Assembly (NCBI GenBank): GCA_964342475.1
Contig: CAYFGE010000006.1
Span: 92,626 to 156,625, forward strand
DNA length: 64,000 nt
Reading direction: 5' to 3'
Source of the DNA: an uncultured Planctomycetales bacterium
GTDB taxonomy: Bacteria > Planctomycetota > UBA1135
Shown: positions 28,407 to 47,883 of the stretch, in pieces
How positions within the stretch are numbered: the first letter of the stretch is position 1
How the letters are laid out: each line of letters opens with the position of its first letter
Translations under genes and position numbers: made by a program
Notes under the pieces: model-generated
Told to the model about the DNA's origin: nothing
What the model saw: the letters and a program-made list of their open reading frames with translations, nothing else
Databases searched by the model: none

Positions 28407-30284
28407 GTGTCCCCCGCCCGCCGCGTCCCCTTCCTGCTGTTCCTCGGCTTCGCCGCCGGGTGGGCCGTCGGCGCGCTCGAGACCGCCGCGATCCGCGCCA
28501 CCACCGAGCTCGCCTTCCCCGATCCGCTCGGGGACTCCGTCCAGGTCGCCTGGCGCTACGGCTTGGTCGGCGCGGCGCTCGCGCTCGCCCTCGGCCACCT
28601 GCCGCGCAAGCTGCGCCCCAACCGCGCCGCCTCGGTCCTGGCCACCACCCTCGCGGTGATGGTCTTCGTCTCGGGCACCTCCTGGATCCACCAGAAGAGC
28701 TTCCCCGGAGTGCCGGCCTGGTCCCTGGGGCCGCTGGTCGCGAACGGCGTGCTCGCCGCCTTCTGCCTGGTCGTCGGCTACGGGCTCGGACGGCTGCGCG
28801 CCTCCTTCGCCGCGGTCCTCGTGCTGGCCGTCGCCGGCCACGGCGGCGCGATGATCGCCGGCGGCAGCGAGGCCGCGACCACCGAGGCGCCCGCCCCTGC
28901 CCCGGAGGGCGCGCCGAACATCCTCTTCCTGCTGGTCGACACGCTGCGCGCCGACCACCTCCAGAGCTACGGCTACGAGAAGCAGACCTCGCCGGTGCTC
29001 GACCGCATCGCCGCCGAGGGCCTGCGATTCCACGCCGCCTACGCCCAGGCGACCTGGACGCGGCCGTCCGTCGCCTCGCTGATGACCTCGCTCTACCCGG
29101 CGAGCCACCTGACCAACAGCACCGAGATCCGCGTGCCGGAGGAGCTGCCGACCCTGGCCGAGGTGGTCCGCGCGCAGGGCTACGCCACCGCCGGCTTCTC
29201 GGCCAACCGCAACGTCTCCGAGATCTTCGGCTTCCACCAGGGCTTCGACGTCTTCTGGACGCACGCCTCGGACGAGCTGAACTCGATGCTGCGCTTCACC
29301 ACCTGGGAGCGCGTGATGGAGATCCTGCGCGGCCTCGGCCTCGTCGGCCACAGGTCGCCCGCCAACCAGGCCGAGCACATCACCGACCGGGTGCTGCGCT
29401 GGGTGGAGGAGCACGACGGCTCGCCGTACTTCCTCTACATCCAGTACCTCGACCCGCACGGGCCGTACGACCCGCCGGCGCACTACCTCGAGGAGGTCGG
29501 CATCGAGCCGTTGGACCGCGCGCTGGCGGCCAAGATGAACGTCACTCACGGCGCCGACCCCTTCCCCTTCTTCGAGGTGGAGGGCGTGGACGAGGCCTCG
29601 CTCGCCCGCGTGCGCGAGCTGTACGACGCCGAGATCTCCTACTGCGACCGCGAGATCGGCCGTCTGCTCGACGCCATGCGCGCCAAGGGCCTGCTCGACA
29701 ACACCTACGTGGTCGTCACCTCCGACCACGGCGAGGAGTTCTGGGAGCACAAGCAGTTCGGCCACGGCCAGTCGGCCTACGACGAGCTGGCGCGGGTGCC
29801 GCTGCTGATCGACGGCCCCGGCATCGAGCCCGGCGTGGTGCCGGGCGCGGTCGAGCTGATCGACCTCTACCCGACCATCGCGACCTGGGTCGGCGCGCCG
29901 CTGCCGCCGCGCATCCAGGGCCGCGACCTGAACGACCTGATCGCCGGCGGCGCGCGCGAGGAGGCCGCCGAGGCCCTGGTCAGCAACATGAAGGGCTTCG
30001 AGCTCACGGCCTGGGTCTTCGGCCGCGAGAAGCTGGTCCGCATCGAGCTGCGCGGCGAGGAGGCGTGGATGCTCTACGACCTCGACGCCGACCCGCTGGA
30101 GCAGGACGACCTCGCCGCGGCGCGCCCCGAGCGCCTGGCCGAGCTGAAGGCGCTGCTCCTCGAGCGCCGCGAACGCGCCGGCGAGTACCGCGTGGACGGC
30201 GTCGAGACCACCACCATGGACCGCGACCTCGCGCGCGAGATGGAGGGGCTCGGCTACGTCGACGAAGGGGAGGACGACGAGTAG
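28407..30284 (+). CDS. membrane-anchored sulfatase-like alkaline-phosphatase-superfamily enzyme, Thr at nucleophile position (paralog S1)
   Basis: ~5 N-terminal TM helices with GWAVGALE. Catalytic domain NILFLLVDTLRADHL...YGYEKQTSPVLD...ATWTRPSVASLMTSLYPASH, where sulfatases have C/S-x-P-x-R. C-terminus ...MEGLGYVDEGEDDE. Confidence 0.8.
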   Translation: MSPARRVPFLLFLGFAAGWAVGALETAAIRATTELAFPDPLGDSVQVAWRYGLVGAALALALGHLPRKLRPNRAASVLATTLAVMVFVSGTSWIHQKSFPGVPAWSLGPLVANGVLAAFCLVVGYGLGRLRASFAAVLVLAVAGHGGAMIAGGSEAATTEAPAPAPEGAPNILFLLVDTLRADHLQSYGYEKQTSPVLDRIAAEGLRFHAAYAQATWTRPSVASLMTSLYPASHLTNSTEIRVPEELPTLAEVVRAQGYATAGFSANRNVSEIFGFHQGFDVFWTHASDELNSMLRFTTWERVMEILRGLGLVGHRSPANQAEHITDRVLRWVEEHDGSPYFLYIQYLDPHGPYDPPAHYLEEVGIEPLDRALAAKMNVTHGADPFPFFEVEGVDEASLARVRELYDAEISYCDREIGRLLDAMRAKGLLDNTYVVVTSDHGEEFWEHKQFGHGQSAYDELARVPLLIDGPGIEPGVVPGAVELIDLYPTIATWVGAPLPPRIQGRDLNDLIAGGAREEAAEALVSNMKGFELTAWVFGREKLVRIELRGEEAWMLYDLDADPLEQDDLAAARPERLAELKALLLERRERAGEYRVDGVETTTMDRDLAREMEGLGYVDEGEDDE

Positions 30285-31434: not shown

Positions 31435-32637
31435 GTGCACCGCCGCCTCTGCCTCGGGCGGGTCCCGATCCTGACCCTCCACAGCGTCCGCCGGCGCCAC
31501 ACCGAGACGCTCGGCCCGGGCGGCGAGCTGAGCCTGCCGGACGACGTCTTCGAGCGCATGCTGCGCGGGCTGCGCCGCGACGGCTTCGAGGGGATCACCT
31601 GCGGCGAGCTGTTCGCCCACCTGAGCGACGGCGCGCCGCTTCCGGCGAAGCCGCTGCTGCTGACCTTCGACGACGGCTACCTCGACAACTGGACGATCGT
31701 CGCGCCGCTGCTGCGCCGCCACGGCTTCCGCGGCACGGTCTTCGTCGCCACGGACTACCTCCACCCCGACGCGGAGGCCGTGCGGCCCACGCTGGAGGAC
31801 ACCGATGCGCCGCCGGAGCGCGGCTACCTCAGCGCCGCCGAGCTGCGCCGGCTGCAGGAGGAGGGAGTCCTCGAACTGCAGTCGCACACCGCCACGCACG
31901 GCCGCCTCGCGGTCAGCGGCGAGGTGGTGGACTTCCACCGCCCGGACGCCCGCTGCTGGTGGCTCGAGCGGCAGCGCGCCACGCCCGCCCAGCTCTCCGA
32001 CGAGGAGCGCGGCGCCACCGCCGGCCTCGTGCCCTGGGGCGCCCCGGTCCACCGCTCGGAGTGGGCCTCGGCCGCGCGCGCCGTCCATCCCGACCCGCGG
32101 CTCGAGGACGCCCTCACCACGCACGTCGCGGCGGGCGGCGGCGCCGAGTTCTTCGCCCGGCCGGCCTGGCGCGAGGAGCTGGCCGCCGTCGAGCGCGAGG
32201 GCGCGTGGGACCACCGCCCGGAGACCGAGGAGGAGCGCCACGCGCGCATCCTCGACGACCTGACGCGGGCGAAGGCCACGCTCGAGAGCATCCTCGGCCG
32301 CGAGGTGCCCTACTTCGCCTGGCCCGGCGGCGGCTCGAGCGCGCTCGCGGTCCGCATCGCCCTCGACGAGGTCGGTCACCGCGCCACCTTCGGCACGCAC
32401 CGCGTCTGCGAAGGGGTGCCGCTCGGCCTCGAAGCGATCCCGCGGGTCTACTTCCGCCAAACCTACCGCGGGCGCGCCGACCGCGTGCTGCGCGCCTGGC
32501 ACGCGCGCGGGCTGGCCGGCTGGGAGGCCGGACGCCTCGGCGGCTACCTGCGCCTGTTCGCAGCCAACCGCCTGATGAGCCTGCTCGGCGACGCCTCGCG
32601 GCCCAACCAGCCGCGCCGCGTCCCGGGTCGGGCCTAG
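31435..32637 (+). CDS. polysaccharide deacetylase (CE4/NodB-like)
   Basis: LLLTFDDGYLDNW (NodB motif 1) and ELQSHTATH (His motif). GTG 31435 lies 3 nt after the upstream stop. Confidence 0.8.
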   Translation: MHRRLCLGRVPILTLHSVRRRHTETLGPGGELSLPDDVFERMLRGLRRDGFEGITCGELFAHLSDGAPLPAKPLLLTFDDGYLDNWTIVAPLLRRHGFRGTVFVATDYLHPDAEAVRPTLEDTDAPPERGYLSAAELRRLQEEGVLELQSHTATHGRLAVSGEVVDFHRPDARCWWLERQRATPAQLSDEERGATAGLVPWGAPVHRSEWASAARAVHPDPRLEDALTTHVAAGGGAEFFARPAWREELAAVEREGAWDHRPETEEERHARILDDLTRAKATLESILGREVPYFAWPGGGSSALAVRIALDEVGHRATFGTHRVCEGVPLGLEAIPRVYFRQTYRGRADRVLRAWHARGLAGWEAGRLGGYLRLFAANRLMSLLGDASRPNQPRRVPGRA

Positions 32638-34424
32638 TGGTCGTCGCCGATGTAGCCCAGCTGCTCGAGCGCGTGAGTGTCCTCCGCCGTCAGCTCCCCC
32701 ACCGCCTCGCGCTGCGGCAGCGCCTCGAAGTAGGCGCGCCCCTCGGCCAGCATCTCGGCCAGCCGCGCCGGCTCCTCGGCCGCGCGGTCGACCGTGTCCC
32801 CGGTCTCGGGGTGGTAGAGGAAGCTGCGACCGTCGAGGGTCCAGACGACCTTCCAGCCGTCCTTCATCCACCCGGACATCCGCGTCTCCTCGAGGCGGCG
32901 CTGGTAGGCCTCCATGTAGAGGCCGCGCGCGGCCCCTCCCTCGGCGCCGCGCAGGACCGGCAGGAGGCTGTGGCCGTGCAGCTCCTGCGGCGGGTCGATC
33001 CCGAGCAGGTCGAGCACGGTCGGCACGAGGTCGACGTGGGCCGCGGCGGCCGCCGAGCGCACGCCGCGGGGCGCCGCCTCCTCGGACGCCGGTAGGCGGA
33101 TCACCGCCGGCACGTGCTGCGTCGCCGCGTAGAGGCTCTTCTCGTGGTTCAGCTCGAGGCCGCCCTCCCCGAAGCACTCGCCGTGGTCCGCGACCAGGAG
33201 GAACAGGGTGTCGCGCAGGCCGGGGTCGCGCGCCTCGAGCGACTCGCGCAGCGAGCCGAGCAGTTCGTCGAGCAGGCTGATCTCGGCCTTGTGCAGCAGC
33301 CAGTCCTCCTCGAGGGCGGGGTCGAAGGCGTGCGGCCCCTCGTCGCGGCGGGCCAGCACGGCCTCGCGGTGCGCCGCCGGCGGCTCGAAGGGACCGTGGG
33401 CGTCGTAGAGGTGGACCCACAGGAAGGTCGGGCGGTCCTGCGCCTCGTACCACTCCTTGGCGCGCGCGACGGTGAGCGGGCCGGGGACGGTGTAGGTCAG
33501 CCGCGCCTCGGGGAAGAACAGCGTGCGCAGCAGCGAGGAGCTGAAGCGGCACAGCTCACGCAGCTGGTCGGGCAGCGAGGAGCCGGAGCGGTCGTCGAAG
33601 ACCTGGAAGCCCTCGGCGAAGCCGAAGCGCGCCGTGATCGGGTAGCCGGAGACGAAGCCGCCGGTGGCGTAGCCGTGCTCGCGCAGCAGGCCGGGCAGGG
33701 CGTGCAGCTCGGCGGCGGCGAACTGCTCGCCGTTCGAGCGCAGGCCGTGGCTGGGCGGGTAGAGCCCCGACAACATCGTGGCGTGGGCCGGGCCGGTGAT
33801 CGAGGCGACCGACTGAAAGTCGTCGAAGGTGGTGCCCTCGGCGGCGAAGCGCTCGAGGCTCGGCATGTCGAGGCCGCCGCCGCCGTAGAGCGGCAGCAGG
33901 TCGGCGCGCACCGTGTCCCAGCTGAGCAGGACGATGTGCGGCGCTTCCGGCGCGGGCGAGGTCGGCGCCGGTCCGGTGGTGACGCGCTCGCGGCCGACGA
34001 AGACCATGGCGGCGAGGACCAGGGCCGGGGCGGCCCAGCTGAGACGGCCGAGCAGGCGCGGCGCGGCCTCGGCGCGGCCGAGCACCGCCAGCGCGGTCAG
34101 GGCGAGGAGGCCGACGAAGCCCGCGGCGATGGAAGGCCAGGCGGCGAGGTTCGGCAGGCCGACGCGCCGGTTGAGGAACCAGAGGCCCCCGGCGCCGAGC
34201 AGGACGAGGACGGCGAGCAGCGGGCGCCAGCCCCCCAGCCGGCCGAGCGCGCGGCCGAGCAGCCAGCCGCCGACGCCGTAGAAGAAGAGGTTCAGCAGCG
34301 GGGTGAGCAGGTAGACCCAGCCGGTGCCGGCGAAGCCGGCGTTGGTCAGGGAAAGGCCCGACTCCCATGCGCCGAGCGCCCACCCGGCGATCATCCCGTC
34401 CAGCGCGGCCGATCTGCGTTGCAT
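32634..34424 (-). CDS. membrane-anchored sulfatase-like enzyme, Thr nucleophile position (paralog S2)
   Basis: N-terminal TMs with GWALGAWE. HIVLLSWDTVRADLL...SITGPAHATMLSGLYPPSHG. C-terminus ...LEQLGYIGDDH. Its stop shares the CTAG at 32634..32637 with the convergent deacetylase. Confidence 0.8.
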   Translation of the reverse strand: MQRRSAALDGMIAGWALGAWESGLSLTNAGFAGTGWVYLLTPLLNLFFYGVGGWLLGRALGRLGGWRPLLAVLVLLGAGGLWFLNRRVGLPNLAAWPSIAAGFVGLLALTALAVLGRAEAAPRLLGRLSWAAPALVLAAMVFVGRERVTTGPAPTSPAPEAPHIVLLSWDTVRADLLPLYGGGGLDMPSLERFAAEGTTFDDFQSVASITGPAHATMLSGLYPPSHGLRSNGEQFAAAELHALPGLLREHGYATGGFVSGYPITARFGFAEGFQVFDDRSGSSLPDQLRELCRFSSSLLRTLFFPEARLTYTVPGPLTVARAKEWYEAQDRPTFLWVHLYDAHGPFEPPAAHREAVLARRDEGPHAFDPALEEDWLLHKAEISLLDELLGSLRESLEARDPGLRDTLFLLVADHGECFGEGGLELNHEKSLYAATQHVPAVIRLPASEEAAPRGVRSAAAAAHVDLVPTVLDLLGIDPPQELHGHSLLPVLRGAEGGAARGLYMEAYQRRLEETRMSGWMKDGWKVVWTLDGRSFLYHPETGDTVDRAAEEPARLAEMLAEGRAYFEALPQREAVGELTAEDTHALEQLGYIGDDH

Positions 34425-34437: not shown

Positions 34438-34465
34438 GCCCCGGCGGCGCGTGCGCGTGGCGTGG

Positions 34466-34471
34466 TATCTT
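34466..34471 (+). promoter_or_regulatory. candidate extended -10 box TGgTATCTT, 6 nt upstream of ATG 34478 (leaderless S3)
   Basis: gtggTATCTTctgccgATG read directly from the sequence. Confidence 0.5.
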
Positions 34472-34477
34472 CTGCCG

Positions 34478-36421
34478 ATGGACGATTCTCCCACCGGACC
34501 TTCGTTCCTCGGCCGGGCCCTGCGCGGCGCGCTGGCCGGCGCCCTGCTCGGCCTCGCCGTGGGCGCGATCGAAGGTTGCGTGCTGCTCGTCGGCGTCGGC
34601 ATGGGCGTGCGCTCGCCGATGGCCGAGATGCTGCGCATCGACGTCTACTACGCCCTGTTCTGCGGCGGCATCGGAGCCCTCGTCCACGCCCTGTTCGCGC
34701 GGCGCTGCTTCCCCAATGCGTTGCGCTGGACGATCGGTCTGACCGTCTTCTTCCTCGGCCTGATGTGGCTGCGCGACGGGCTGTTCATCGGCAAGGACGC
34801 CGGCGCCGGCCTGTTCCTCGGCGCGCTCGGCGGGGCGGCGGTCCTCGCGGCGGTGGTCGGCTGCACCCTCGGCCGGCTGGGCCGCGCCCCCGCGGCCGGC
34901 CTGGTCCTGGCCCTGGTCGCCGCCGGCGCCGCCCACGGCGTCGCGCTGACCGCGACCGACGACGGCCAGGGCGCCGACCTCGGCATCCCGCGCTGGAGCG
35001 ACGAGCGGCCGCCCAACCTGCTGGTCGTCCTGATCGACACGCTGCGCGCCGACCGCCTCGGCTGCTACGGCTACGACCGGCCGACCTCGCCCGTGCTCGA
35101 CGAGCTCGCCGCCGGCGGCACGCGCTTCGACGCCGCCTACGCCCACGCCTCGTGGACGCGGCCCTCGGTGGCCTCGCTGATGACCTCGCTCTACCCGTCG
35201 AGCCACGACATCCAGAAGGACCTCGACTCGCTGCCCGCCAGCCTGCCGACGCTGGCCCAGGTGCTCGACGCGCGCGGCTACGAGACGGCGGCCTTCTCGG
35301 CCAACCCGCAGATCTCACCGGTCTACGGCTTCGACCGCGGCTTCGACACCTTCGGCAAGGGTGGCAGCCACCTCGTCCGCCGTACCGCGATCGGCAACCT
35401 CGAGCACATGGCGAAGCGGGTGCTGCGCATCCAGCTCCTGCCGCTGCTGCGCGGCGGCGCGGCGGCGAAGCCGAAGGCGGAGAAGGACGCCGACGGCCAC
35501 CCGCTGGAGAACACCGGCGCGGCCGCGATCAACGAGCAGGTCTACCGCTGGATCGACGGCTACACCGCGGACGAGCCCTACTTCCTCTACGTCCAGTACA
35601 TCGACCCGCACACGCCCTACGCCCCGCCGGTCGACCTGATCAACGAGGGCGGCCAGGCGCCGGTCTCGATGCCGGCCAGCTTCATCGACAAGGACGCGCC
35701 GCCCTTCCCGCTGGCCGAGTCCGCCGCGGCGACCGAGGAGGTGCTGGCCGGCCTCTCGCGCCTCTACGACGCCGAGGTGCGCTTCGTCGACCGCGAGGTC
35801 GGTCGCCTGATCGAGCGCCTCGAGGAGCGCGGCATGATGGAGAACACCTTCGTCGTCGTCACCTCCGACCACGGCGAGGAGTTCTACGACCACAGCCAGT
35901 GGCTGCACGGGCAGTCGCTGTTCGACGAGCTCGTCCGCGTCCCGCTGATCGTCGCCGGCCCCGGCGTCGCCGCCCAGGTCGTGCGGCTGCCGGTCGAGCT
36001 GGTCGACGTCCTCCCCACCGCCGCCGGCTGGGCCGGCGCCCCGCTCGGCTTCGACCACCACGGCCGCGACCTCGGCGAGGTCCTGCGCGGCGGCGAGCCC
36101 GACGGGGACCGCGTGGTCTACAGCGAGCGGCAGGGGACCTACGCGATCGACGCGGTGCGCCGCGGCGACCGCAAGCTGATCCGCATCACCTCGCCCGAGG
36201 GCGTGACCTGGCTCGAGTACGACCTGGCCGCCGACCCGGGCGAGCGGAACAACCTCGCCGCCTCGCGCGCGCCCGACGCCGAGCTGCGCGCCCTGCTCGA
36301 GCAGGTCGAGGTGGCGGCCGGCGCCTACCTCGGCGAGCGCTCGGGCAAGATCGAGGCCGAGGGGGAGCTGGCCGAGGAGCTCGGCGCCCTCGGCTACATC
36401 GACACGGAGGAGGACGAATGA
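34478..36421 (+). CDS. membrane-anchored sulfatase-like enzyme, Thr nucleophile position (paralog S3)
   Basis: N-terminal TMs with GLAVGAIE. NLLVVLIDTLRADRL..YGYDRPTSPVLD..ASWTRPSVASLMTSLYPSSH. C-terminus ...LGALGYIDTEEDE. ATG 34478 is preferred over GTG 34451 because of the -10 spacing. Confidence 0.8.
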   Translation: MDDSPTGPSFLGRALRGALAGALLGLAVGAIEGCVLLVGVGMGVRSPMAEMLRIDVYYALFCGGIGALVHALFARRCFPNALRWTIGLTVFFLGLMWLRDGLFIGKDAGAGLFLGALGGAAVLAAVVGCTLGRLGRAPAAGLVLALVAAGAAHGVALTATDDGQGADLGIPRWSDERPPNLLVVLIDTLRADRLGCYGYDRPTSPVLDELAAGGTRFDAAYAHASWTRPSVASLMTSLYPSSHDIQKDLDSLPASLPTLAQVLDARGYETAAFSANPQISPVYGFDRGFDTFGKGGSHLVRRTAIGNLEHMAKRVLRIQLLPLLRGGAAAKPKAEKDADGHPLENTGAAAINEQVYRWIDGYTADEPYFLYVQYIDPHTPYAPPVDLINEGGQAPVSMPASFIDKDAPPFPLAESAAATEEVLAGLSRLYDAEVRFVDREVGRLIERLEERGMMENTFVVVTSDHGEEFYDHSQWLHGQSLFDELVRVPLIVAGPGVAAQVVRLPVELVDVLPTAAGWAGAPLGFDHHGRDLGEVLRGGEPDGDRVVYSERQGTYAIDAVRRGDRKLIRITSPEGVTWLEYDLAADPGERNNLAASRAPDAELRALLEQVEVAAGAYLGERSGKIEAEGELAEELGALGYIDTEEDE

Positions 36422-38345: not shown

Positions 38346-38927
38346 ATGAACGCACCGGGTCCGGGCGCTGCGCATTCCTCCGGCCGGGGCTGCCTCCTGT
38401 GGGGCGGCATCGGCGTCGCCTTCGTCGTGCTCGGCCTGGGCGCGATCGTGTTCTGGCTGGCCACCCACTCCACCCAGGACCCGGCCGAGGCCCGCGCCTG
38501 GGCCGAGGAGATGATCGACCTCGAGTTCCCGGCCGAGACGCCTCCCGCTTCGGGCCTGCGGCTCGACGACGTCCGCTTCGTCTTCGCCGGCGAGGACGTC
38601 GAGGACCCCTCGCGCCTCAGCCTGACGGTGGTCGGCTCCGCTTCGGAGCAGTCGCTCGAGTTCGACCAGCTCGCCCGCTACGGCGAGACCGACGAGGACG
38701 CCGAGGTGAAGGTGCTGGACCGCCAGGAGCTCGGATTCCTCGTCCGCGGCGAGGAGGTGCGCACGATGCTGGTGCGCTACGACAACGGCACCACCGACTA
38801 CTCGCTGCTGCTCGAGGGCAAGCCCGCGATGGAAGGCCGCAACTGGCGGGTCATGCTCGTCTTCCACGGGCCGCCCGAGCGCAACACGGCCGAGTGGGTG
38901 CAGCGCGCCCTCGACGGCGTGCGCTGA
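38346..38927 (+). CDS. membrane-anchored protein of unknown function
   Basis: One N-terminal TM (LLWGGIGVAFVVLGLGAIVFWLA) followed by an acidic soluble domain. Strong third-position G/C. Confidence 0.55.
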   Translation: MNAPGPGAAHSSGRGCLLWGGIGVAFVVLGLGAIVFWLATHSTQDPAEARAWAEEMIDLEFPAETPPASGLRLDDVRFVFAGEDVEDPSRLSLTVVGSASEQSLEFDQLARYGETDEDAEVKVLDRQELGFLVRGEEVRTMLVRYDNGTTDYSLLLEGKPAMEGRNWRVMLVFHGPPERNTAEWVQRALDGVR

Positions 38928-38936
38928 GGCCGCGGC

Positions 38937-40622
38937 CTACTCGCTGCTCTTCTTGCGGGCGCCGGTCTTCTTGCCGGCGGCCTTGGAGCTCTTCTTGGCC
39001 GTCTTCTTGGCGGGCGCCTTCTCGGCCGGCGTCTTCTCCGCCTGCGCCGCTGCGGGCTTGCCGCCGATCTTGGCCTCCTGGGCCCGCTTCCGCGCCTCGG
39101 CGCGCTCGCGGTTGGCCTGGATGATCGGGATCGCCCCGTCACCGGCCTCTCCCCCGTCGGCGCCGGAATCGCCCTCGGGCGACTCGACCGGCTGGAGGAC
39201 GCCCTCCCACCAGCCGCGCAGGACGCCGCCGTCCTGGCTGCCGATGATCACCTGGCCTCCCTCGCAGTGCTCGTTCGAGGCGACGAAGTCGTCCACGAGG
39301 TCGCGCAGCTGCTGCCGCGCCGACTGGTGGACCAGGGCGACGAGGACGTTGCAGGCGCCGCCGAGGGTGAGGCGGGTTCCGAACAGGCCCTCCTGGCGGC
39401 CGGCCTCCTGGAAGGCCTGCACGAAGGAGTCGGCCACGGAGTGCGAGATGCCGCACTTCTCCTGCAGGCTGCGGTGGCTGCTCTGCAGGCAGCGGCCGCC
39501 CTCGCCGAGGAAGGTCTCGCGCAGGGTCCGCGAGTACTCGTTGATGTTCGACACCAGCCGCCGCACGCGGTTGCTCTCCCGCACGAGGTGCTCGGAGTTG
39601 GCGCGCATCCGGTAGCTGGATTCGGGATCCACCAGGGCCGCGAGGTCGGCGTGTTCCTTCCGGCGCTTGAAGATCTTGAGCCAGTCCGCCCCACCCTGGC
39701 TGGCCGGGACGTGGTTGCGCAGGCCCTCCTCGAACTCGTTGGGCGGCATCTGGCCCCAACTGCCGAAGAGCTGCTGCTTCTCCTTCTTGAGGGCGGCGTT
39801 CAGGTGGGCCAGGGCCATCTCGGTCGAGACCCGGACCTGGTCGCGGGGCCCCGGGCCCACCTCGTGCTGGTAGCCCAGTTCGACCGCGGCGAAGGAGCAC
39901 TGCGGCGGCACCGGGATCCACTGCATGTCGAGGTCGATGCCGTGCTCGATGGCCAGGGCGCAGTCACGGCGTCCCAGCGCGCTGGTCAGCGCGTCCGACA
40001 TCGGGATCTCCTCGCCGAGGACCTCGCGGGCCCCCTGGATCACCGCGCGGGCGACCTGGACGCCGTCCACCCGCTTCTTGGCCAGACCGGTGGAGGCCTT
40101 GAAGGCCAGGGCGGCGGCCACCCCGAAGGCGGCGCGCTCGCCGAAGCCCAGCCCCTCGGGGACCCGGCTCCAGATCACCATGTCGAAGCCCACCTTCGGG
40201 GTGTTCAGCTGGCGGGTCCGGCGCAGGCCCAGCATGGCCGCGATGATCCGGAGCATCCACTGGCTCTCCTCCTCCTCGAAGACCTGGCCCAGGACGGCCA
40301 GGCTCCGCGGGGGGCCCTTCTTGGTGTAGAGGACGTCGACGTCGCCCTCCCACAGCTGGCTCCCGCCCCAGCGGGACGGGAGAACGCTACGAATTCGGAT
40401 CTTGCGGTCCTCGCGGTTCTGGATCGCGCAGTAGACCGAGCGCGAGAGGGGCAGCGTCAGGGTGCTGGTGCCCGGCCCCTCGACCAGGCCGCCGATCAAT
40501 TCCAGGCGGCACGGAGCCTGCGTAAGCCACAGCGGCTTATCGAGTTGCAGCAGTTCACCCGCCTCGCCGCTGAGCAGCGAAGCGAAGGGGAGGAACGATG
40601 CGGGGAGTGCGGGCTCCGGCAA
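38937..40622 (-). CDS. GHMP-kinase-like protein with degenerate phosphate-binding motif and a Lys/Ala/Pro-rich histone-H1-like C-terminal tail
   Basis: APCRLELIGG resembles GHMP motif 1 (APxRxxLxGG/E). VPEGLGFGERAAFGVAAALA sits where PxGSGLGSSAA is expected. Last ~60 aa: ...KPAAAQAEKTPAEKAPAKKTAKKSSKAAGKKTGARKKSSE. Start set at TTG 40622, where third-position G/C begins; track ATG 40745 lies in AT-richer, apparently non-coding sequence. Confidence 0.55.
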   Translation of the reverse strand: MPEPALPASFLPFASLLSGEAGELLQLDKPLWLTQAPCRLELIGGLVEGPGTSTLTLPLSRSVYCAIQNREDRKIRIRSVLPSRWGGSQLWEGDVDVLYTKKGPPRSLAVLGQVFEEEESQWMLRIIAAMLGLRRTRQLNTPKVGFDMVIWSRVPEGLGFGERAAFGVAAALAFKASTGLAKKRVDGVQVARAVIQGAREVLGEEIPMSDALTSALGRRDCALAIEHGIDLDMQWIPVPPQCSFAAVELGYQHEVGPGPRDQVRVSTEMALAHLNAALKKEKQQLFGSWGQMPPNEFEEGLRNHVPASQGGADWLKIFKRRKEHADLAALVDPESSYRMRANSEHLVRESNRVRRLVSNINEYSRTLRETFLGEGGRCLQSSHRSLQEKCGISHSVADSFVQAFQEAGRQEGLFGTRLTLGGACNVLVALVHQSARQQLRDLVDDFVASNEHCEGGQVIIGSQDGGVLRGWWEGVLQPVESPEGDSGADGGEAGDGAIPIIQANRERAEARKRAQEAKIGGKPAAAQAEKTPAEKAPAKKTAKKSSKAAGKKTGARKKSSE

Positions 40623-40783
40623 GAAAAATCGTCGGTTACGGCAAGCCTCTCGCCTTGCGAATGTTATGGCTGTTTCCCCTCCAGGATGCAAGTGCCATTG
40701 TCCGAAAGATGGGGTAAGCTTCCGACCCCGAGAACCCGGTCTCAACGGACCGGGAGCCTCCGTTCACGAGGAAATTCGCGTCC

Positions 40784-41989
40784 ATGCACCTCCCCCGAAC
40801 CCTCGCCCTGGCCGCCCTGGCCGCCTCCGCCGCCCTTATGGCCGCCTCCTGCGGCGGTAGCGGCGGCTCCGGCTCGACCTCGGCCGGCGCCACGAACAAC
40901 GGCGGCGTCCTGCCGACCTTCCCCGGCATCGGCACGGCCGACGCCATCTCCCCCACCGAGGTCCTGGTCTCCTGGCCGGACGCGATCGGGGGGACCGCCA
41001 ACAGCTCGGCCAACATGCGTTACCGCGTCTTCCGCGGCTTCGACAACGCCTCGGTTCTGCTGTCCAACGCCCTGGTCCACGAGACCGGCGCCGGCGTGAC
41101 CAGCTTCGTCGACCGCGGCCTGCCGCCGTTCACGACGATCTACTACCGCGTCGAGGCGGTCGACACCCGCGGCAACGTCGCGAGCAGCTCGCGGGTCTCG
41201 GCCGCGCGCACCCCGTCGACCTACATGCCCGGCTCGGCCAACTACACCAACGACGTCCTGCCGCTGTGGAACGCCGCCGATCCGAACGGCGCGACCTGCA
41301 TCGGCTGCCACGACGGCAGCGCCGCCGGCGGCCGCCTGAACCTGAGCACCGCCCTCGACGTCCTGATCGGCGTCGGCACCCTCCAGGATCCGGACAGCTT
41401 CATCATCGCCTACGACGGTGAGGGCACCTGGAACGAGTTCGTCGCCCGCTTCGTGCAGCGCCCCTTCGAGCACCGCGGCTACTTCACCTCGCCGAACTCG
41501 GTGCTGGCCATCGAGGAGCCGCTGAGCAACTGGGTCGACGAAGGCGCCCTGTCCTCTCCGGACGGCACCCCGCCGGTCTTCAAGTTCGACGCCATCGCCA
41601 ACGCCGGCAAGTACTACGGCCGCTTCGTCGACTACCAGACCGCCGAGGTCACCTGGTTCCACGCCTCCGACCCGGAGAGCCTGCCCTTCACCGGCAGCAC
41701 CCAGAACCAGCTCGAGTACCACGTCTACGCCGGCCTCGACAGCGCCACGATCGACTGGGAGAACCCGGTCGCCGTCGTGATGAGCCCCGAGCGCACCCCG
41801 ACCAACGACACGATCACCACCACCTTCCCGTGGACCGGCGATCGCCTGACCGTGGTCGTCCGCGCCCTGGACAGCTCCGGCCGCTCGGTCGTCCTGCCGC
41901 CGATCGGCGACCCGGGCTACCGCGACGCGCTCAAGCTGCGCTGGCGCAACATGTCGGTCAACGAGCGGGAGATCCGCCTGACCCGCTGA
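40784..41989 (+). CDS. probable lipoprotein with FN3-like modules and a CxxCH heme-binding (PSCyt1-like) segment
   Basis: Signal LAALAASAALMAASCGG. FN3-like ISPTEVLVSWPD...YYRVEAVDTRGN. VLPLWNAADPNGATCIGCHDGSAAGGRLNL (CxxCH at 41297..41311). Confidence 0.6.
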   Translation: MHLPRTLALAALAASAALMAASCGGSGGSGSTSAGATNNGGVLPTFPGIGTADAISPTEVLVSWPDAIGGTANSSANMRYRVFRGFDNASVLLSNALVHETGAGVTSFVDRGLPPFTTIYYRVEAVDTRGNVASSSRVSAARTPSTYMPGSANYTNDVLPLWNAADPNGATCIGCHDGSAAGGRLNLSTALDVLIGVGTLQDPDSFIIAYDGEGTWNEFVARFVQRPFEHRGYFTSPNSVLAIEEPLSNWVDEGALSSPDGTPPVFKFDAIANAGKYYGRFVDYQTAEVTWFHASDPESLPFTGSTQNQLEYHVYAGLDSATIDWENPVAVVMSPERTPTNDTITTTFPWTGDRLTVVVRALDSSGRSVVLPPIGDPGYRDALKLRWRNMSVNEREIRLTR

Positions 41990-42011: not shown

Positions 42012-42046
42012 CGCCGGCCGCGGCCCTGCCGCGGCCGGCGTTCTTC
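42012..42046 (+). terminator. intrinsic terminator-like hairpin after the lipoprotein gene
   Basis: CGCCGGCCGCGG-ccctg-CCGCGGCCGGCG (12-bp perfect stem) followed by TTCTTC. Confidence 0.6.
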
Positions 42047-43400
42047 ATTCCTCGTCGTCCTCGCCGCCCTCGAGGTAGCCCAGCTCGGCGAGCTCGGCGG
42101 ACAGCGCCTCGTCGGCCACCACCTCCACCTTCTCGACCTGGCGGAAGCCGCGCTGGCGGAACTCGGCCAGCGCCTGCCGCAGGGCCTCCGCCCGCTCGGG
42201 AGAGGCGCCGAACAAGTCCTGCTGCTCGCCGGGGTCGGCGGCCAGGTCGTAGAGCTCCATCCCGGCGGGGCCGGCGATCAGCTTCTCGCTGCCCCGGACC
42301 GCCGCCCACAGGTGCAGCGGCTCGGGCAGGACCTGGAAGCGGTGGGCGAACAGGGTGCGGCGCTCGAAGGCCGCCGGGGCGTCCCGTTGTCCCTGGATCA
42401 GCGGGGCCAGGCTCATGCCCTCGAGGCCGGGGGGCACCTCGACCCCGGCCAGCGCCAGGGTGGTGGGCAGCACGTCGATGAGGCTGACGGAGGTCGGCAC
42501 GCGGCGCCCCTCCATGCCGCCGGGCGGCCGCACGAGCAGCACGATGCGGTTCAGCTCGTCGTAGAGGGTGAACTCGTGGCCCATCTGCCCGTGCTCGCGG
42601 AACTCCTCGCCGTGGTCGCTGATCACGACGAGCAGGGTGTCCTCGGCCCAGCCGAAGTCCTCGTAGAGCCCGCGCAGCTGCTCGTCGAGGTAGCGCAGCT
42701 CGCTGTCGTAGCGCTCGCGCATGTCCTGCACGGTGCCGCGCTGCTTCTCGTACCAAGGCTCGCGCTTGTGGTACGGCTCGTGGACGTCCATGAAGTGCAG
42801 GTAGACGAAGTCCGGCGCGCCCGGAGCGAGCAGCTCCTCGCGCCACTCCCCCATCTGCGCGGCGACCTCGGCGGCGTCGCCCTTGCGGATCTGCTCGAAG
42901 CGGTCGAAGCCGCGGTCGAGGCCGATCTCCGGGCCGACGTTGAGGTTGGTCGCGATCCCCCAGGTGCGGTAGCCCGCGGCCGAGAACAGCTGCGGCATGG
43001 TGCGCAGGTCCTCGGGCAGGCGGTTGAGCGGAAGCACCTCGGCGGCGCCCTTCTGCTCACGGCGGAGGAAGGCCAGGAAGCCCTCGATGATGCCGTGCTC
43101 GGTCGGGTAGAGGCCGGTCATCACCGAGGTCACGGCCGGCGCGGTCCACGAGGAGGTCGACAGCGCGCGCTCGAAGACCGCCGCGGTCGAGCCCAGCTCG
43201 AGCAGGAAGGGCGAGGTCTCCTTCTCGGCGCCGTAGGTCTGCATCGCGTCGGGGCGCAGGGTGTCGAGCAGGATGACGACGACGTCCGGGCGCGGGTCGT
43301 CCTCGACCGGGGCCGGCGCCGGCGCGCCGCCTTCGTCGGCGCAGGCGGGGAACAGGGCGAGGAGGGCGGCCAGGGCCGCGCAGCGGGCGCGGGCCGTCAA
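42045..43400 (-). CDS. secreted/lipoprotein sulfatase-like enzyme, Thr nucleophile position (paralog S4)
   Basis: DVVVILLDTLRPDAM..YGAEKETSPFL..SSWTAPAVTSVMTGLYPTEHG. C-terminus ...LAELGYLEGGEDDEE. TTG 43400 gives MTARARCAALAALLALFPAC (signal/lipobox-like) and forms a TTGA overlap with the ispG stop. Track start GTG 43454 would overlap ispG by 58 nt. Confidence 0.8.
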   Translation of the reverse strand: MTARARCAALAALLALFPACADEGGAPAPAPVEDDPRPDVVVILLDTLRPDAMQTYGAEKETSPFLLELGSTAAVFERALSTSSWTAPAVTSVMTGLYPTEHGIIEGFLAFLRREQKGAAEVLPLNRLPEDLRTMPQLFSAAGYRTWGIATNLNVGPEIGLDRGFDRFEQIRKGDAAEVAAQMGEWREELLAPGAPDFVYLHFMDVHEPYHKREPWYEKQRGTVQDMRERYDSELRYLDEQLRGLYEDFGWAEDTLLVVISDHGEEFREHGQMGHEFTLYDELNRIVLLVRPPGGMEGRRVPTSVSLIDVLPTTLALAGVEVPPGLEGMSLAPLIQGQRDAPAAFERRTLFAHRFQVLPEPLHLWAAVRGSEKLIAGPAGMELYDLAADPGEQQDLFGASPERAEALRQALAEFRQRGFRQVEKVEVVADEALSAELAELGYLEGGEDDEE

Positions 43401-44497
43401 ACCTCGATGCCGGATCCGGCGGCGGGGGCGCCGCGCTCCTTCTCTTCCTTCCACTGGGCGATCTCCTCGAGCAGGGCTTCGACCATCTGGTCCTCCGGGA
43501 CGACCCGCACCTGCTTGCCGTGGCGGTAGAGAATTCCCTTCCCGCCGCCGCCGGCGATGCCGATGTCGGCCTCCTGCGCCTCGCCCGGCCCGTTCACGAC
43601 GCAGCCGAGCACGGCGATCTTGACCGGCACCTTCTCGCCCTGGAGGCGCTGCTCGAGCTCCTCCATCAGGGCCTCGAGGTCGATCTCGATGCGGCCGCAG
43701 GTCGGGCAGGCGATCAGCTCGGGGCTGGTCACCCGCGCCCCGGTGGCCTTGAGGATGTCGAAGGCGACCGGGATCTCGACCGCCGGGTCGGCGGTCAGCG
43801 AGACGCGGATCGTGTCCCCGATGCCGTCGAGCAGCAGCGCGCCCAGGCCGGCGGCCGACTTCAGCGAGCCGTAGCCCGGGCGGCCGGCCTCGGTGACCCC
43901 GAGGTGCAGCGGCACGTCGGTGCGCTCGGCGAACAGGCGGTTGGCGGCCAGCACGGTCTGCGTGTCGGTGGACTTGAGCGACACCAGGTAGTTGCTGAAG
44001 CCGAGCTCCTCGACCGTCTCGCAGTGGCGGAGGGCGGACTCGACCATGGCCTCGGGCGAGGGCCAGCCGTGCTTCTCGAGCAGGTCCTTCTCGACCGACC
44101 CGGAGTTCACCCCGATGCGCAGCGCCACCCCGGCGGCGTCGGCGGCCCGCACCACCTCGCGGACGCGGTCCAGCGAGCCGATGTTGCCCGGGTTCAGGCG
44201 GACCTTGTCCACCCCGGCGTCGATGCTGCGCAGCGCCAGGCGGTGGGTGAAGTGGATGTCGGCGACCAGCGGGACCGGGCAGTTGCGCCGGATCTCGGGC
44301 AGGGCGTCGGCGGCCTTGTCGTGGTTGACGGTCACGCGGACCATCTCGCAGCCGGCCTCCACCAGCCGCTGGATCTGGTCCAGGGTGGCCGGGACGTCGT
44401 CGGTGTCCGAGCTGGTCATCGACTGGACCCAGATCGGGTGTTCGTGGCCGACCAGGAGGTCGCCGATGCGGACGGTGCGGGTCGTGCGGCGGGGCAT
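43397..44497 (-). CDS. ispG: 4-hydroxy-3-methylbut-2-en-1-yl diphosphate synthase (MEP pathway)
   Basis: IWVQSMT, VRVTV, PLVADIHF, RLNPGNIG, ACPTCGR and VLGCVVNGPGEA, typical of IspG/GcpE. Confidence 0.95.
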   Translation of the reverse strand: MPRRTTRTVRIGDLLVGHEHPIWVQSMTSSDTDDVPATLDQIQRLVEAGCEMVRVTVNHDKAADALPEIRRNCPVPLVADIHFTHRLALRSIDAGVDKVRLNPGNIGSLDRVREVVRAADAAGVALRIGVNSGSVEKDLLEKHGWPSPEAMVESALRHCETVEELGFSNYLVSLKSTDTQTVLAANRLFAERTDVPLHLGVTEAGRPGYGSLKSAAGLGALLLDGIGDTIRVSLTADPAVEIPVAFDILKATGARVTSPELIACPTCGRIEIDLEALMEELEQRLQGEKVPVKIAVLGCVVNGPGEAQEADIGIAGGGGKGILYRHGKQVRVVPEDQMVEALLEEIAQWKEEKERGAPAAGSGIEV

Positions 44498-44607: not shown

Positions 44608-45693
44608 ATGGCCGAACCGGCTGTCCTGCGTGGATCCTGCCACCTCCTCCAGGCCTTCGACGTGGGTTTCGAAATCGACCTGCGCAAGGCCATGGCCGCG
44701 CTTTCCGAGCCCGGCCGCACCCGCAGCTACTTCCGCAAGAGCCGCCTGCCGCTGGCCGAACAGACCCTCGGCCAGGCGGTGCGCTCGCTGCGGCGCTGCG
44801 AGGCCTTCCGCCTGGGCGCCTTCGAGACGGCGCCCGAGGTCGAGCTGACGATCTACCGCTTCGGCGTGATCAGCCTGACCTTCTCGGTGCCCTTCGAGGG
44901 CCCGGCGGGGCAGCTGCGCGAGCTGGCGGTGGCGGCCTACGACTCGAGCGAGCTCAAGGCCTTCGCCGCCGCCCGCGTCGAGGAGGCGCTGCGCGACCTC
45001 GGCGAGGCCGTCAGCCAGCCGCGCCTGTCCATGGTCCACGAGGACTACCGCCTGTTCGTGCTCGACCCGGCGGGCGGCGCCACCGTCGCCGCCCTCGAGG
45101 CCGCGCCCGACCTCCTCGCCGGCGTGCTGCGCGCCGAGGTCGGCCCGCTGGCGGCGGACGAGGTGAGCGACGCGCTCAAGGAGCGCGCCTCCTACTCGCC
45201 GCAGGAGGCGGTGTGGGTCGACTGGCTCAGCGCCGTGCTGGTCGGCGAGGACATGGACGAGGAGTGCGACGTGCTCGAGCTGGCCACCGCCGAGCTGACC
45301 GCGATGCGCTTCCTCGACGCCCAGCTGCAGGAGTCGCTCGAGGCCTCCTACGGCGTGCTCGAGCGCGCCGGGACCGGCCTCGGCCGCCTGCGCCTGCGCT
45401 CGGGCGAGCTGCAGCGCGCCGCGCGCCTGCAGGCCGACCACGCCCTGCTGCGCGAGATCGCCGACAACCCGCTCAAGCTGCACGGCGACGACTACCTGGC
45501 GCGCATCTACGACGCCGCCTCCCGCCGCTTCCGCTTCGACGCGCGCGACAGCGCCGTCGAGCGCAAGCTGGCCACCCTGCGCGACATCTACCAGCAGGTG
45601 CTCGACCTGGCCGGGGTGTTCCGCTCCGAAGCGCTGGAGTGGATCATCATCATCCTGATCGCAGTCGACATCCTGGTCTACTTCACGCCATGA
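44608..45693 (+). CDS. DUF155/RMD1-like protein with a C-terminal TM helix
   Basis: VELTIYRFGVISLTF and a C-terminal ...RSEALEWIIIILIAVDILVYF segment, as I recall for DUF155. First gene of the coupled operon. Confidence 0.5.
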   Translation: MAEPAVLRGSCHLLQAFDVGFEIDLRKAMAALSEPGRTRSYFRKSRLPLAEQTLGQAVRSLRRCEAFRLGAFETAPEVELTIYRFGVISLTFSVPFEGPAGQLRELAVAAYDSSELKAFAAARVEEALRDLGEAVSQPRLSMVHEDYRLFVLDPAGGATVAALEAAPDLLAGVLRAEVGPLAADEVSDALKERASYSPQEAVWVDWLSAVLVGEDMDEECDVLELATAELTAMRFLDAQLQESLEASYGVLERAGTGLGRLRLRSGELQRAARLQADHALLREIADNPLKLHGDDYLARIYDAASRRFRFDARDSAVERKLATLRDIYQQVLDLAGVFRSEALEWIIIILIAVDILVYFTP

Positions 45694-46409
45694 GCGCGCG
45701 CGGCGCCGGCCCGGCCCTCTCGGGGGGGATGCTCCCCCAGCCCGACCTGACCACCTGCGGCCCGACCTGCCTGCACGCGGTCTACCGCCACCTCGGCGAG
45801 CAGCTGCCGCTCGAGCAGGTCATCCGCGAGGTGCCCACGCTGCCGATGGGCGGCACGCTCGCGGTCTGCCTGGCCAACCACGCGCTGGCCCGGGGCTACC
45901 GCGCGCGCCTCTACACCTTCAACCTCGAGGTCTTCGACCCGACCTGGATGGACCTCCAGCCGGGCGAGATGATCGACCGCCTGGACAAGCGCATCGCCAA
46001 GCGCCGCGGCCGCCGCTTCCGCGAGGCCGCGCAGGCCTACCGCGAGTACCTGGTGCGCGGCGGCGAGATCTGCATGGAGGACCTCTCCGTCGAGCTGGTG
46101 CGCCGCCCGCTCGACGCCGGCGCCCCGGTCATCGCCGGGGTCAGCGCGACCTACCTCTACCGCGAGAAGCGCGAGATCCCCGAGACCAACCAGCCCGACG
46201 ACGTCGCCGGCGAGCCCGCCGGCCACTTCGTGGTGATGACCGCCTACGACCCGGCGACCCACGAGTTCGAGATCGCCGACCCCCTGCAGCCCAACCCGCT
46301 CGCCCCGGGCCCGTCCTACTATGTGGACGCGCGCCGGACGCTGACCGCGGTCCTGCTCGGGATCCTGACCTATGACGCCAACCTCCTCCTCCTCCGCCCG
46401 GGGCGCTGA
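45690..46409 (+). CDS. papain-fold / C39-like cysteine peptidase domain protein
   Basis: ATGA overlap with the upstream stop. Putative catalytic Cys in DLTTCGPTCLHAVY and His in GHFVVMTAYD. Confidence 0.6.
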   Translation: MSARGAGPALSGGMLPQPDLTTCGPTCLHAVYRHLGEQLPLEQVIREVPTLPMGGTLAVCLANHALARGYRARLYTFNLEVFDPTWMDLQPGEMIDRLDKRIAKRRGRRFREAAQAYREYLVRGGEICMEDLSVELVRRPLDAGAPVIAGVSATYLYREKREIPETNQPDDVAGEPAGHFVVMTAYDPATHEFEIADPLQPNPLAPGPSYYVDARRTLTAVLLGILTYDANLLLLRPGR

Positions 46410-47879
46410 GCGCGGCGCGCGCAGCCCCAAGGCGGTCCTCGTCGTCGACCGTGTGGAGGACTGGCCCGACCCCGCGCCCGGGGTCATGGTGGTCACCGCG
46501 CGCACCTACCTGCGCGACGAGGACTGGCAGGGCCGGCCCGGGCTGCGGGTGTTCAACCTGTGCCGCAGCTGGCGCTACCAGAGCGCGGGCTACTACGTCT
46601 CGCTGCTCGCGGTGTCGCGCCGCCACGTGCCGATGCCCAGCCTCGACACCGTGCTGCGCATGCGCTCGCGGCCGCTGCTGCGCGACCTCGACGAGGAGCT
46701 CGACCGCCTGATCCAGCGCAGCCTGTCGCACGTGCGCAGCGAGCGCTACGAGCTGAGCATCTACTTCGGGCGCAACCTCGCCGCGTCGCAGTCGCGGCTG
46801 GCGCGGCGCCTGTTCAACGAGTTCCCCGCGCCGATGATGCGCGCCCGCTTCCGCCTCGACGACGGCCACTGGCACCTGGCCTCGATCGTCGCCATCCCGG
46901 CGCGGGAGGTCCCGCCGAACCACCAGGACTTCCTGCACGAGGCCGCGCGCGAGTACTTCGCGCGGCCGAGCTACCGTCGCCGCTCGCGCAGCCTGCCGGA
47001 CACGCTGGGCATCGTGGTCGACGGCAACGAGGAGCTGGCGCCGAGCAACGAGCGCGCGCTGCGCCGCATGGAGCGCGCCTTCCGCGAGCAGGGCTTCGAG
47101 GTCGAGCGCATCGGCAAGGACGACCTCAGCCGCGTGGCCGAGCTCGACGCGGTGTTCCTGCGCGAGACCACGGCGGTCAACCACCACACCTACCGCTTCG
47201 CGCACCGCGCGGAGCAGCTCGGCATCCCGGTGATCGACGACCCCGAGTCGATCCTGCGCTGCACCAACAAGGTCTTCCTGGCCGAGACCATGCAGCTGGG
47301 CCGCATCCCCCACCCGCGCACCCTGGTCGTCGACCGCAACGACCTCGACCGCGTGCCGGACGAGCTCGGGCTGCCCTGCGTACTCAAGTACCCCGACAGC
47401 AGCTTCTCGCGCGGCGTGAAGCTGTGCCGCACGGCCGAGGAGTTCGAGACCCACGCGCAGGCCATCCTGGCCGAGTCCGACCTGCTGCTCGCGCAGGAGT
47501 TCCTGCCCACCGAGTGGGACTGGCGCGTCGGCGTGCTCGACGGCCGGGTGCTCTACGCCTGCCGCTACCACATGGCGCGCGGCCACTGGCAGATCGTGCG
47601 CGCCGACGGCAAGGGCAGCTACTCCTACGGCAAGGTCGAGCCCGTGCCGCTGGACGACGTGCCGCACGCCGTGCTGCGCAACGCCGTGCGCGCGGCCAAC
47701 CGCATCGGCCGCGGCCTCTACGGCGTGGACCTGAAGTACGTCGGCCGCCGCGCGCTGGTCGTCGAGGTGAACGACAACCCGAACCTCGACGCCGGCTGCG
47801 AGGACGCCATCCTCGGCGAGGAGCTCTACGCCGCCATCGCCCGTTCCTTCCGCCGCCGGGTCGACGCCCGCCGCCGCCG

Positions 47880-47883
<4 letters not shown>
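46372..47883 (+). CDS. RimK-like ATP-grasp amidoligase with N-terminal RLAN-type extension
   Basis: C-terminal ATP-grasp: LPCVLKYPDSSFSRGV, LLAQEFLPTEWDWRVGVL, GLYGVDLK...VVEVNDNPN. The N-terminal ~200 aa (VFNLCRSWRYQSAGYYVSLLA...) resemble the domain found fused to RimK-like enzymes. The start is ambiguous (ATG 46372 or GTG 46453). Confidence 0.75.

Follow-up and report, generated by a model that had tools for sequence, protein, structure and literature searches.

The gene at positions 38937..40622 (minus strand) of a 64,000-nucleotide stretch of DNA from an uncultured Planctomycetales bacterium (assembly GCA_964342475.1, contig CAYFGE010000006.1), hereafter the window, encodes a 561-amino-acid protein, initiated at TTG, in which a GHMP fold with a degenerate active site is followed by a disordered C-terminal tail. 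The window has a GC content of 73%, and all positions given below are numbered within it. The reading favored here, held with moderate confidence, is that this is a non-catalytic GHMP-fold protein whose lysine-rich tail confers, in the lineage of the window, a non-specific affinity for polyanions. The family to which it belongs occurs in a single group of marine Planctomycetota, all uncultured, and is best regarded as a clade-restricted, probably non-catalytic variant of the GHMP fold, not as a novel type of system.

The core of the protein, residues 30-472 (39207..40535, minus strand, as are all features of the gene described below), is galactokinase-like. A model computed with AlphaFold2 (AF2) from 26 family sequences had a predicted local distance difference test (pLDDT) score of 83 and a predicted template modeling score of 0.79, with most of the core above a pLDDT of 90. 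In Foldseek searches it matched human GALK1 (E 1.6e-21, target template modeling (TM) score about 0.8) and Gal3p (E 2e-20), and the matches to GALK1, GALK2, Gal1p and archaeal galactokinases together had E values of 1e-19 to 1e-21 and target TM scores of 0.64-0.87. Among the sequence profiles, Pfam GHMP_kinases_N was barely over its cut-off (23.3 vs. 22.3 bits), and the NCBIfam galactokinase model TIGR00131 gave an E value of 1.3e-20, yet reached only 73.7 of the 226.65 bits that its cut-off requires. The galactokinase signature PF10509 was not found in the Pfam search of the protein. The PDB entry 9ulx (AbGHMP) was matched with an E value of 4.9e-27 by the single sequence and 3.4e-42 by the family profile; a literature search for AbGHMP or 9ulx found no paper, and the structure is apparently unpublished. 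Since Pfam, NCBIfam, the PDB sequence search and the AF2 model with Foldseek agree, a two-domain, galactokinase-like GHMP fold, with a predicted N-terminal ribosomal-S5-domain-2-like domain alongside a C-terminal domain, is established; a GHMP-kinase-like fold had been proposed in a preliminary description of this DNA.

The core is under strong purifying selection, with a ratio of non-synonymous to synonymous substitution rates (dN/dS) of 0.078 relative to a 95%-identical sister strain, and about 110 alignment columns are conserved at 90% or more across the family. On these two grounds the protein is still functional. The family has its own strictly conserved basic/aromatic blocks, YTKKGPPRS, GLRRTRQLNTPKxGF, STGLxKKRVDG, EHGxDxxMQW and GWWEGVL. 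The conservation of the active site is quite different. It was examined in an alignment of 71 homologues (44-96% identity) with galactokinase, with counts taken over up to 72 orthologues and compared with those in 55 canonical relatives.

The equivalent of GHMP motif 1 is APCRLELIGGLVEGPG (40470..40517), for which the family consensus is APGxLxxxGGPxExPG and the canonical relatives have APGRLDVMGGIADYSG. The APCRLELIGG of the window protein, which had been likened to motif 1 in the preliminary description, aligns with motif 1 of both 9ulx and galactokinase. The arginine of galactokinase (APGR) is present in the window protein as Arg39, and is retained in 22 of 63 orthologues. Glu48, at the position of Asp46 in GALK1, is nearly invariant (65 of 67), and is the only galactokinase sugar contact that is kept, as Glu for Asp. 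The sequence GEHTDY of galactokinases has become GGLVEG in the window protein and GGPxEx in the family, so that the positions of Glu43 and His44 are occupied by conserved Gly and Pro; the galactose signature GR[VI]NLIGEHTDY is absent from the window protein. The positions of the other sugar contacts, Arg37 and Asp186, are variable in the family, and that of Tyr236, which is less reliably aligned, appears to be so.

Motif 2, the phosphate-binding loop, is represented by PEGLGFGERAA (40128..40160), which aligns column for column with PQGKGVSSSAA of 9ulx and PIGAGLSSSAA of a galactokinase. The loss of the phosphate-binding serines had been noted in the preliminary description, and the alignment extends it to the whole family, in which the consensus is P-x-x-x-G-[FY]-G-x-x-A-A in place of the PxGSGLGSSAA of active enzymes. 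Positions 162 and 163, which are serine in 55 of 55 canonical relatives, are occupied by E/R/G/N/Q and R/E/D/T/A, respectively, and lie at the 7th and 14th percentiles of conservation. Asp210 (39993..39995), at the position of the catalytic Asp of galactokinase (GxMDQ), is present here and in 31 of 72 orthologues, and is elsewhere replaced by Pro, Gln, Glu, Arg or Ala; it is found in all 55 canonical relatives. Motif 3 reads RLTLGGACNV in place of the Gly-rich TGGGxGG; of its glycines only Gly422 is invariant in the family, compared with GGGSGG in 55 of 55 canonical relatives. The columns of the Ser-Ser pair, the galactokinase Arg and the catalytic Asp, uniform in all 55 canonical relatives, thus fall between the 7th and 27th percentiles of conservation within the family. 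The Asp and Arg on which the sugar-1-kinase mechanism depends are both present in the window protein and are not conserved across its orthologues.

Orthologues that share a fold but differ in their catalytic residues cannot share the canonical mechanism, and the family is therefore read as non-catalytic. Phosphotransfer has most likely been lost, which would make these proteins pseudokinases; the catalytically altered site that had been suspected from the single sequence is thus seen, as variable catalytic columns, across 72 orthologues. Several points weigh against this reading. The motif-2 loop retains its length, Pro155, Gly159, Gly161 (58 of 72) and Ala164/165, and with these the backbone amides could still hold an anion. 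The window protein itself retains both Arg39 and Asp210, some active GHMP kinases, such as homoserine kinase, function without a catalytic base, and the loss of activity is deduced from sequence. The retained loop and the two catalytic residues would also fit continued activity, as a kinase of small molecules or some other GHMP enzyme that depends on ATP, in which the phosphate loop is non-canonical and the substrate is not galactose, as would the near invariance of Glu48 and Gly44/45 in motif 1, the invariance of Arg417 and Gly422 in motif 3 and the strong purifying selection on the core. Such an enzyme is nevertheless unlikely, given that the positions that contact phosphate and Mg in all canonical relatives (Ser-Ser, 55 of 55) are among the least conserved in the family, that the catalytic Asp and Arg are each gone in over half of the orthologues, and that no partner from a sugar-nucleotide pathway lies nearby, unlike the case in active relatives.

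The genomic setting of the active relatives is informative. Two such relatives that were looked up adjoin genes for an NTP-transferase, an epimerase and a fucosidase. Such neighbors are expected for sugar-1-kinases that feed nucleotide-sugar synthesis. Sugar-nucleotide genes were not found beside members of the window family in the loci examined, and a second, active GHMP paralogue that could pair with a pseudokinase was present neither in the window nor in 47 orthologous loci. A weak GHMP match at 53676..53915 was discarded, as it lies inside a pseudouridine synthase gene.

The family is encoded in 47 species-level genomes, all of them uncultured metagenome-assembled genomes (MAGs) and nearly all labeled Planctomycetota; the exceptions are one labeled Myxococcota and three labeled simply 'uncultured bacterium'. 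In an exhaustive search with a profile hidden Markov model over 1.84 billion representatives, the family was represented by two full-length sequences and two fragments, after which the score fell from 740 to 203 bits. Below this step there is a broad GHMP family of about 470-490 amino acids, with 210 representatives at E values below 1e-30, whose source names include 'GHMP kinase', 'L-arabinokinase' and 'galactokinase' and to which AbGHMP (9ulx) belongs. These L-arabinokinase-like proteins of about 480 residues, including AbGHMP in 9ulx and 9uly, are the nearest sequence relatives of the window family (about 22-26% identity; E 3.4e-42 to 9ulx), and agree with it in the order of their domains and in their inserts when compared with the 380-residue galactokinases. 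Canonical members read APGRLDVMGGIADYSG, PLGAGVSSSAAL, CGIMDQVT and GAKITGGGSGGT in their motifs, have no C-terminal tail and are found in sugar-nucleotide operons. The window family has neither the intact motifs nor such operons; its invariant blocks are peculiar to it, and more than 500 bits separate it from these relatives. It is proposed that it descends from L-arabinokinase/galactokinase-like sugar-1-kinases.

Loss of the canonical site is not peculiar to the window family. All four canonical catalytic features are present in just 56 of 138 representatives of the family of about 480 residues (clustered at 50% identity, P0075-P0220), which indicates that degenerate sites arose repeatedly in this wider family; the evolution of pseudokinases within it looks recurrent. 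Several separate degenerate sub-lineages can be seen among these relatives, for example one with GA[KR][IV][ST]G[RK]GCGGV, which lacks the motif-2 serines. The window family is by far the most divergent degenerate lineage found.

In the window family the fold, the hinge and the new basic/aromatic blocks are strictly conserved, and the residues for ATP-phosphate, for Mg and for catalysis as the base, like most sugar contacts, vary freely. This pattern suggests that the protein probably acts by binding a partner protein or a non-canonical ligand, and not by sugar phosphorylation. Every member closes with a short disordered tail that evolves fast, and in the window lineage expansion of short repeats is proposed to have made of it an 85-residue polycation rich in lysine, alanine and proline.

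The tail of the window protein comprises residues 477-561 (38940..39194), with pLDDT values below 50 outside a predicted basic helix at residues 499-519 (39066..39128), which is preceded by an acidic stretch. The segment rich in K, A and P covers residues 503-561 (38940..39116). That the last 60 or so amino acids are rich in these three residues had been observed at the outset, and the count agrees: the final 60 residues contain 14 K and 16 A, and K+A+P make up 55%. At the lysine frequency of the window, about 2%, the probability of at least 14 K in 60 residues is 2e-11, and none of the 34 other open reading frames (ORFs) of the window has more than 6 K in any 40 residues. The tail is translated, as indicated by an in-frame GC content at third codon positions (GC3) of about 0.98-1.0, a dN/dS of 0.30 relative to the sister strain (12 synonymous and 12 non-synonymous changes; core, 0.078) and an in-frame indel of 10 codons between the two strains.

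All 71 orthologues carry a low-complexity tail beyond GWWEGVL, with a median length of 23 residues and a net charge of -3; among full-length members the length ranges from 13 to 95 residues and the net charge from -9 to +13. The window tail has 85 residues, 14 Lys and a net charge of +7, and that of the 95%-identical sister has 95 residues, 19 Lys and a net charge of +13. The long lysine-rich form is confined to these two. In relatives at 83% identity the tails are 31-34 residues long and end in KKKAAKMAKKK or KAKAKAKKK. Compensation of charge between core and tail was not seen: where the core is acidic, so is the tail. In one subclade (P0019, P0020 and P0021) the tail ends, after an Arg-rich stretch, in PDYSGDYDL[DE] (DLGDFGAGDLDG in P0021), which is possibly a short linear interaction motif.

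The tail by itself has no Pfam match at E values up to 10 and no homologue among 5.8 billion proteins, and among profiles it matches, weakly, just the K-rich end of a valyl-tRNA synthetase (ValRS) model (E 0.0033). 'H1-like', the term first applied to it, is thus a statement on composition only. The tail shares with histone H1-like proteins, AlgP and Hc1-Hc2 the character of a polycationic, disordered and repetitive segment, and does not share sequence homology with them. The idea of an H1-like fusion holds as far as a K/A/P-rich tail is present, and does not extend to the family, since the long form is restricted to the window species and its sister.

Comparable lysine-repeat tails are found in mycobacterial Ku (PAKKA repeats), Streptomyces TopA, AlgP, chlamydial Hc2 and Streptomyces DdbA. 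Published accounts describe them as similarly rich in K, A and P, repetitive and variable in length, with size variation of Hc2 arising through repeat number much as the window tail varies, and report that such tails modulate DNA binding or localize to polyphosphate granules (PMC3553676, PMC5714199, PMC9239181, PMC2848022, PMC3643593). The window tail differs from them in having no homology to any, in being attached to the fold of a metabolic enzyme that is not known to act on nucleic acids, and in occurring in one shallow lineage of the family. By analogy with the tails of Ku, TopA, AlgP and Hc2, the most likely consequence of the polycation would be a non-specific affinity for DNA, RNA or polyphosphate. 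Weighing against such a role are the fact that it is argued from composition and, since the tail is acidic in most members, the conclusion that it is not ancestral.

A serious rival is that the lysine-rich tail has no specific function, and that an unconstrained terminus was expanded neutrally by slippage in GC-rich AAG/GCC repeats. The tail-coding DNA contains a 15-nucleotide tandem repeat of 3.1 copies (39003..39048), which suggests slippage as the source of the tail; together with the 10-codon indel between 95%-identical strains, the wide range of length and charge in the family, a dN/dS four times that of the core and the lack of any homologue of the tail, it makes neutral drift a real, if minority, possibility. 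This has to be set against a dN/dS of 0.30 that is still below 1, on small counts (12 + 12), a composition that is preserved across the indel, and the basic ends already present in relatives at 83% identity, which suggest a directional gain of basic charge.

The longest open frame in the ORF list, 38937..40745, would give 602 amino acids from a TTG at 40745. This reading was ruled out, since there are indels in other than multiples of three in the upstream part among close relatives, and the homologues begin at the codon equivalent to 40622, where the TTG matches their N-termini (MPEPALP...). An identical 561-residue protein with the same start is found in NCBI, ENA and Logan assemblies, and an upstream in-frame ATG is absent from most of the 47 orthologous loci. 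At these loci the homologous start codon is GTG in 29, TTG in 13, not counting the window gene, and ATG in 2, and there is no obvious Shine-Dalgarno sequence at the start of the window gene (40620..40622). The near-universal use of a weak GTG or TTG start suggests that translation is deliberately low and that the protein is made at a low level.

Upstream of the start lies a 161-bp gap (40623..40783) with a GC content of 0.571, compared with 0.730. The preliminary description had reported this gap as AT-richer, with a TAACAT box and a CCCGGTC/GACCGGG repeat, and all of these are present, the TAACAT at 40666..40661. Within it a block of about 85 bp (40640..40723, minus strand) is near-invariant among relatives with 64-84% protein identity and contains a promoter-like pair, TTGCAT (40691..40686) and CATAAC (40668..40663), separated by 17 nucleotides on the minus strand; the second element overlaps TAACAT. 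A [CG]ATAAC box is found about 30-50 nucleotides 5' of the start in 34 of 46 orthologous loci, mostly with (C)TTGC about 17-18 nucleotides before it. A strict sigma-70 scan called no promoter. The TTGCAT-17-CATAAC pair is still read as a putative promoter, and the 85-bp block is probably a promoter plus operator. A further conserved TACCCGATGATTTCC-like box lies about 25 nucleotides upstream of the (C)TTGC-[CG]ATAAC element. Inspection of TGGCACTTGCA ruled out a sigma-54 reading, as no N5 spacer separates its GG element from its GC element.

The inverted repeat CCCGGTC-N6-GACCGGG (40735..40754; arms 40754..40748 and 40741..40735), which lies between the divergent genes and is assigned to neither strand, is partly kept in one related locus (L001) and degraded in three others (L002, L003 and L009) without compensatory changes, so that a function for it is doubtful. 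For most of 12 leaders a stem was predicted 4-7 nucleotides past the ATAAC box, but z was below -2 in only 2 of them and the hairpins were mostly no better than shuffled sequence, so that a conserved 5'-leader hairpin is a weak candidate. A riboswitch or small RNA was also considered and rejected, there being no Rfam match in the gap and only a chance-level match (E 0.45) inside the coding sequence.

The gene on the other side of the gap, 40784..41989 on the plus strand, encodes a protein of 401 amino acids with a lipoprotein-type signal, an fn3 domain, a helical domain with CxxCH and a second fn3 domain. Flanks were compared at 47 loci by tblastn with the window proteins and by precomputed gene calls, and this divergent gene, adjacent or nearby in 41 of the 47 species genomes, is the one constant neighbor. 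Its family does not extend beyond this clade of MAGs, and the locus tags are consecutive. Residues C172, C175 and H176 of the CxxCH are invariant; the Pfam matches to PSCyt1 and fn3 are weak, and the AF2 model (pLDDT 86) yielded only tandems of FnIII domains in Foldseek. The 401-residue lipoprotein and the GHMP-like protein may be co-regulated, though the former is exported and the latter stays in the cytoplasm. In the mechanism proposed here, transcription would proceed from the conserved promoter-like element, shared with the divergent gene for the exported heme-motif lipoprotein, and the weak start would hold the GHMP-like protein at low abundance.

Downstream there is no conserved operon partner, as the genes differ between subclades: here a convergent gene for a hypothetical protein of 193 amino acids, which ends at 38927, and elsewhere genes for an M1 peptidase, a TPR protein or an HhH-GPD glycosylase. 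The stop codon of the GHMP-like gene is at 38937..38939, and a terminator-like hairpin (38932..38947) is placed in the 9 bp that separate the two convergent stops and overlaps the end of the tail-coding region. A role in anti-phage defense was rejected, since neither the gene nor its two neighbors had a PADLOC match.

The simplest reading of the history of the gene is vertical inheritance. Horizontal origin had been suggested by an apparent excess of A/T-ending codons relative to neighboring genes, and GC3 is in fact slightly under the mean of the window, 0.948 vs. 0.961 (standard deviation 0.030, 35 ORFs). The difference amounts to about 0.4 standard deviations and is focused on the 5' end, where 10 of the 29 A/T-ending codons fall within the first 50. 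Enrichment of such codons is usual at the 5' ends of genes. Together with the synteny of the divergent neighbor, the presence of ispG within a few kb in 36 of 47 genomes, the restriction of family members to this clade, and the fact that no closer outside homologue or flanking mobile-element scar was seen, these figures make horizontal acquisition highly improbable, and the supposed codon anomaly disappears.

With respect to known systems, the closest precedents for a non-catalytic GHMP-fold protein are eukaryotic. Gal3p of Saccharomyces cerevisiae, a transcriptional transducer, has kept a galactokinase-like fold and lost catalysis, as the window family probably has. Gal3p still binds galactose and ATP, and what sets it apart from Gal1p is a small motif-2 lesion (GLSS--A); in the window family degeneration affects the entire site, and there is no evident Gal80-like partner. 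Inserting the missing dipeptide into Gal3p is reported to restore activity. The second precedent is XOL-1 of Caenorhabditis elegans, also a non-catalytic protein with a GHMP fold, for which passages of a later article that cite earlier work give no detectable ATP binding and a proposed binding of polynucleotides (PMC11349215, citing Luz et al., 2003). It differs from the window family in being a eukaryotic developmental regulator that is not galactokinase-like, has no detectable sequence similarity to the family and carries no polycationic tail. The window family resembles Gal3p and XOL-1 in kind and belongs to neither.

A transducer of the Gal3p type would bind sugar and ATP without turnover and sequester a regulator when liganded, and the tail would place it on the nucleoid. 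Gal3p is among the Foldseek matches and exemplifies a galactokinase paralogue that became a sensor, and the weak start codon and conserved promoter would fit a regulator of low abundance. Such a role is very unlikely here: Gal3p retains nearly the whole galactokinase site, including the motif-2 GLSS, whereas the contacts in the window family are variable, no conserved cytoplasmic partner gene is adjacent, and the basic tail is missing in almost all orthologues. The sugar-kinase-like sensor envisaged in the preliminary description does not, in this sense, agree with sugar contacts that are mostly variable or replaced and with the lack of sugar-nucleotide neighbors. A bolder and quite unlikely proposal is that the family is the first bacterial counterpart of Gal3p and XOL-1, a regulator or scaffold whose conserved basic blocks would bind nucleic acid, a polyanion or a partner protein, which would be co-controlled with the CxxCH/fn3 lipoprotein, and whose tail would reinforce this binding.

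Other features of the window deserve brief mention. Within 15 kb there are at least four genes for sulfatases (28407..30284, 32634..34424, 34451..36421 and 42045..43454), of which the last is placed between the lipoprotein gene and ispG, as it is in 18 of 47 related loci. An abundance of sulfatases is typical of marine Planctomycetota. The lowest GC3 of the window, 0.843 compared with the mean of 0.961, belongs to an ORF of 1415 amino acids at 4646..8893 (plus strand), which is far more deviant than the GHMP-like gene. A cluster at 44608..47883 (plus strand) encodes a RimK-like ATP-grasp protein (RLAN + RimK; 46372..47883) and a protein of 361 amino acids, of which an orthologue contains PF27233 (MJ0711_N); in the sister strain (L052, 1..2012) a Peptidase_C39_2 protein is encoded there as well. 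The cluster may form a ligase module or one for the modification of peptides.

To our knowledge, no catalytically dead GHMP-fold protein has been characterized in bacteria; those known, Gal3p and XOL-1, are both regulators in eukaryotes. A well-conserved bacterial family that is probably of this type and under strong selection, with a clear set of motifs in place of the old ones and with both its genomic partner and its putative promoter fixed, is a tractable case for studying the function of a GHMP fold after catalysis. The apparently recurrent loss of the site in the wider family, in which just 56 of 138 representatives keep all four features, makes the public labels 'galactokinase' and 'L-arabinokinase' unreliable and warns against their automatic use. 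Within this family the lysine-rich tail is a minor addition of recent date, of use chiefly as a natural experiment in charge switching of disordered termini.

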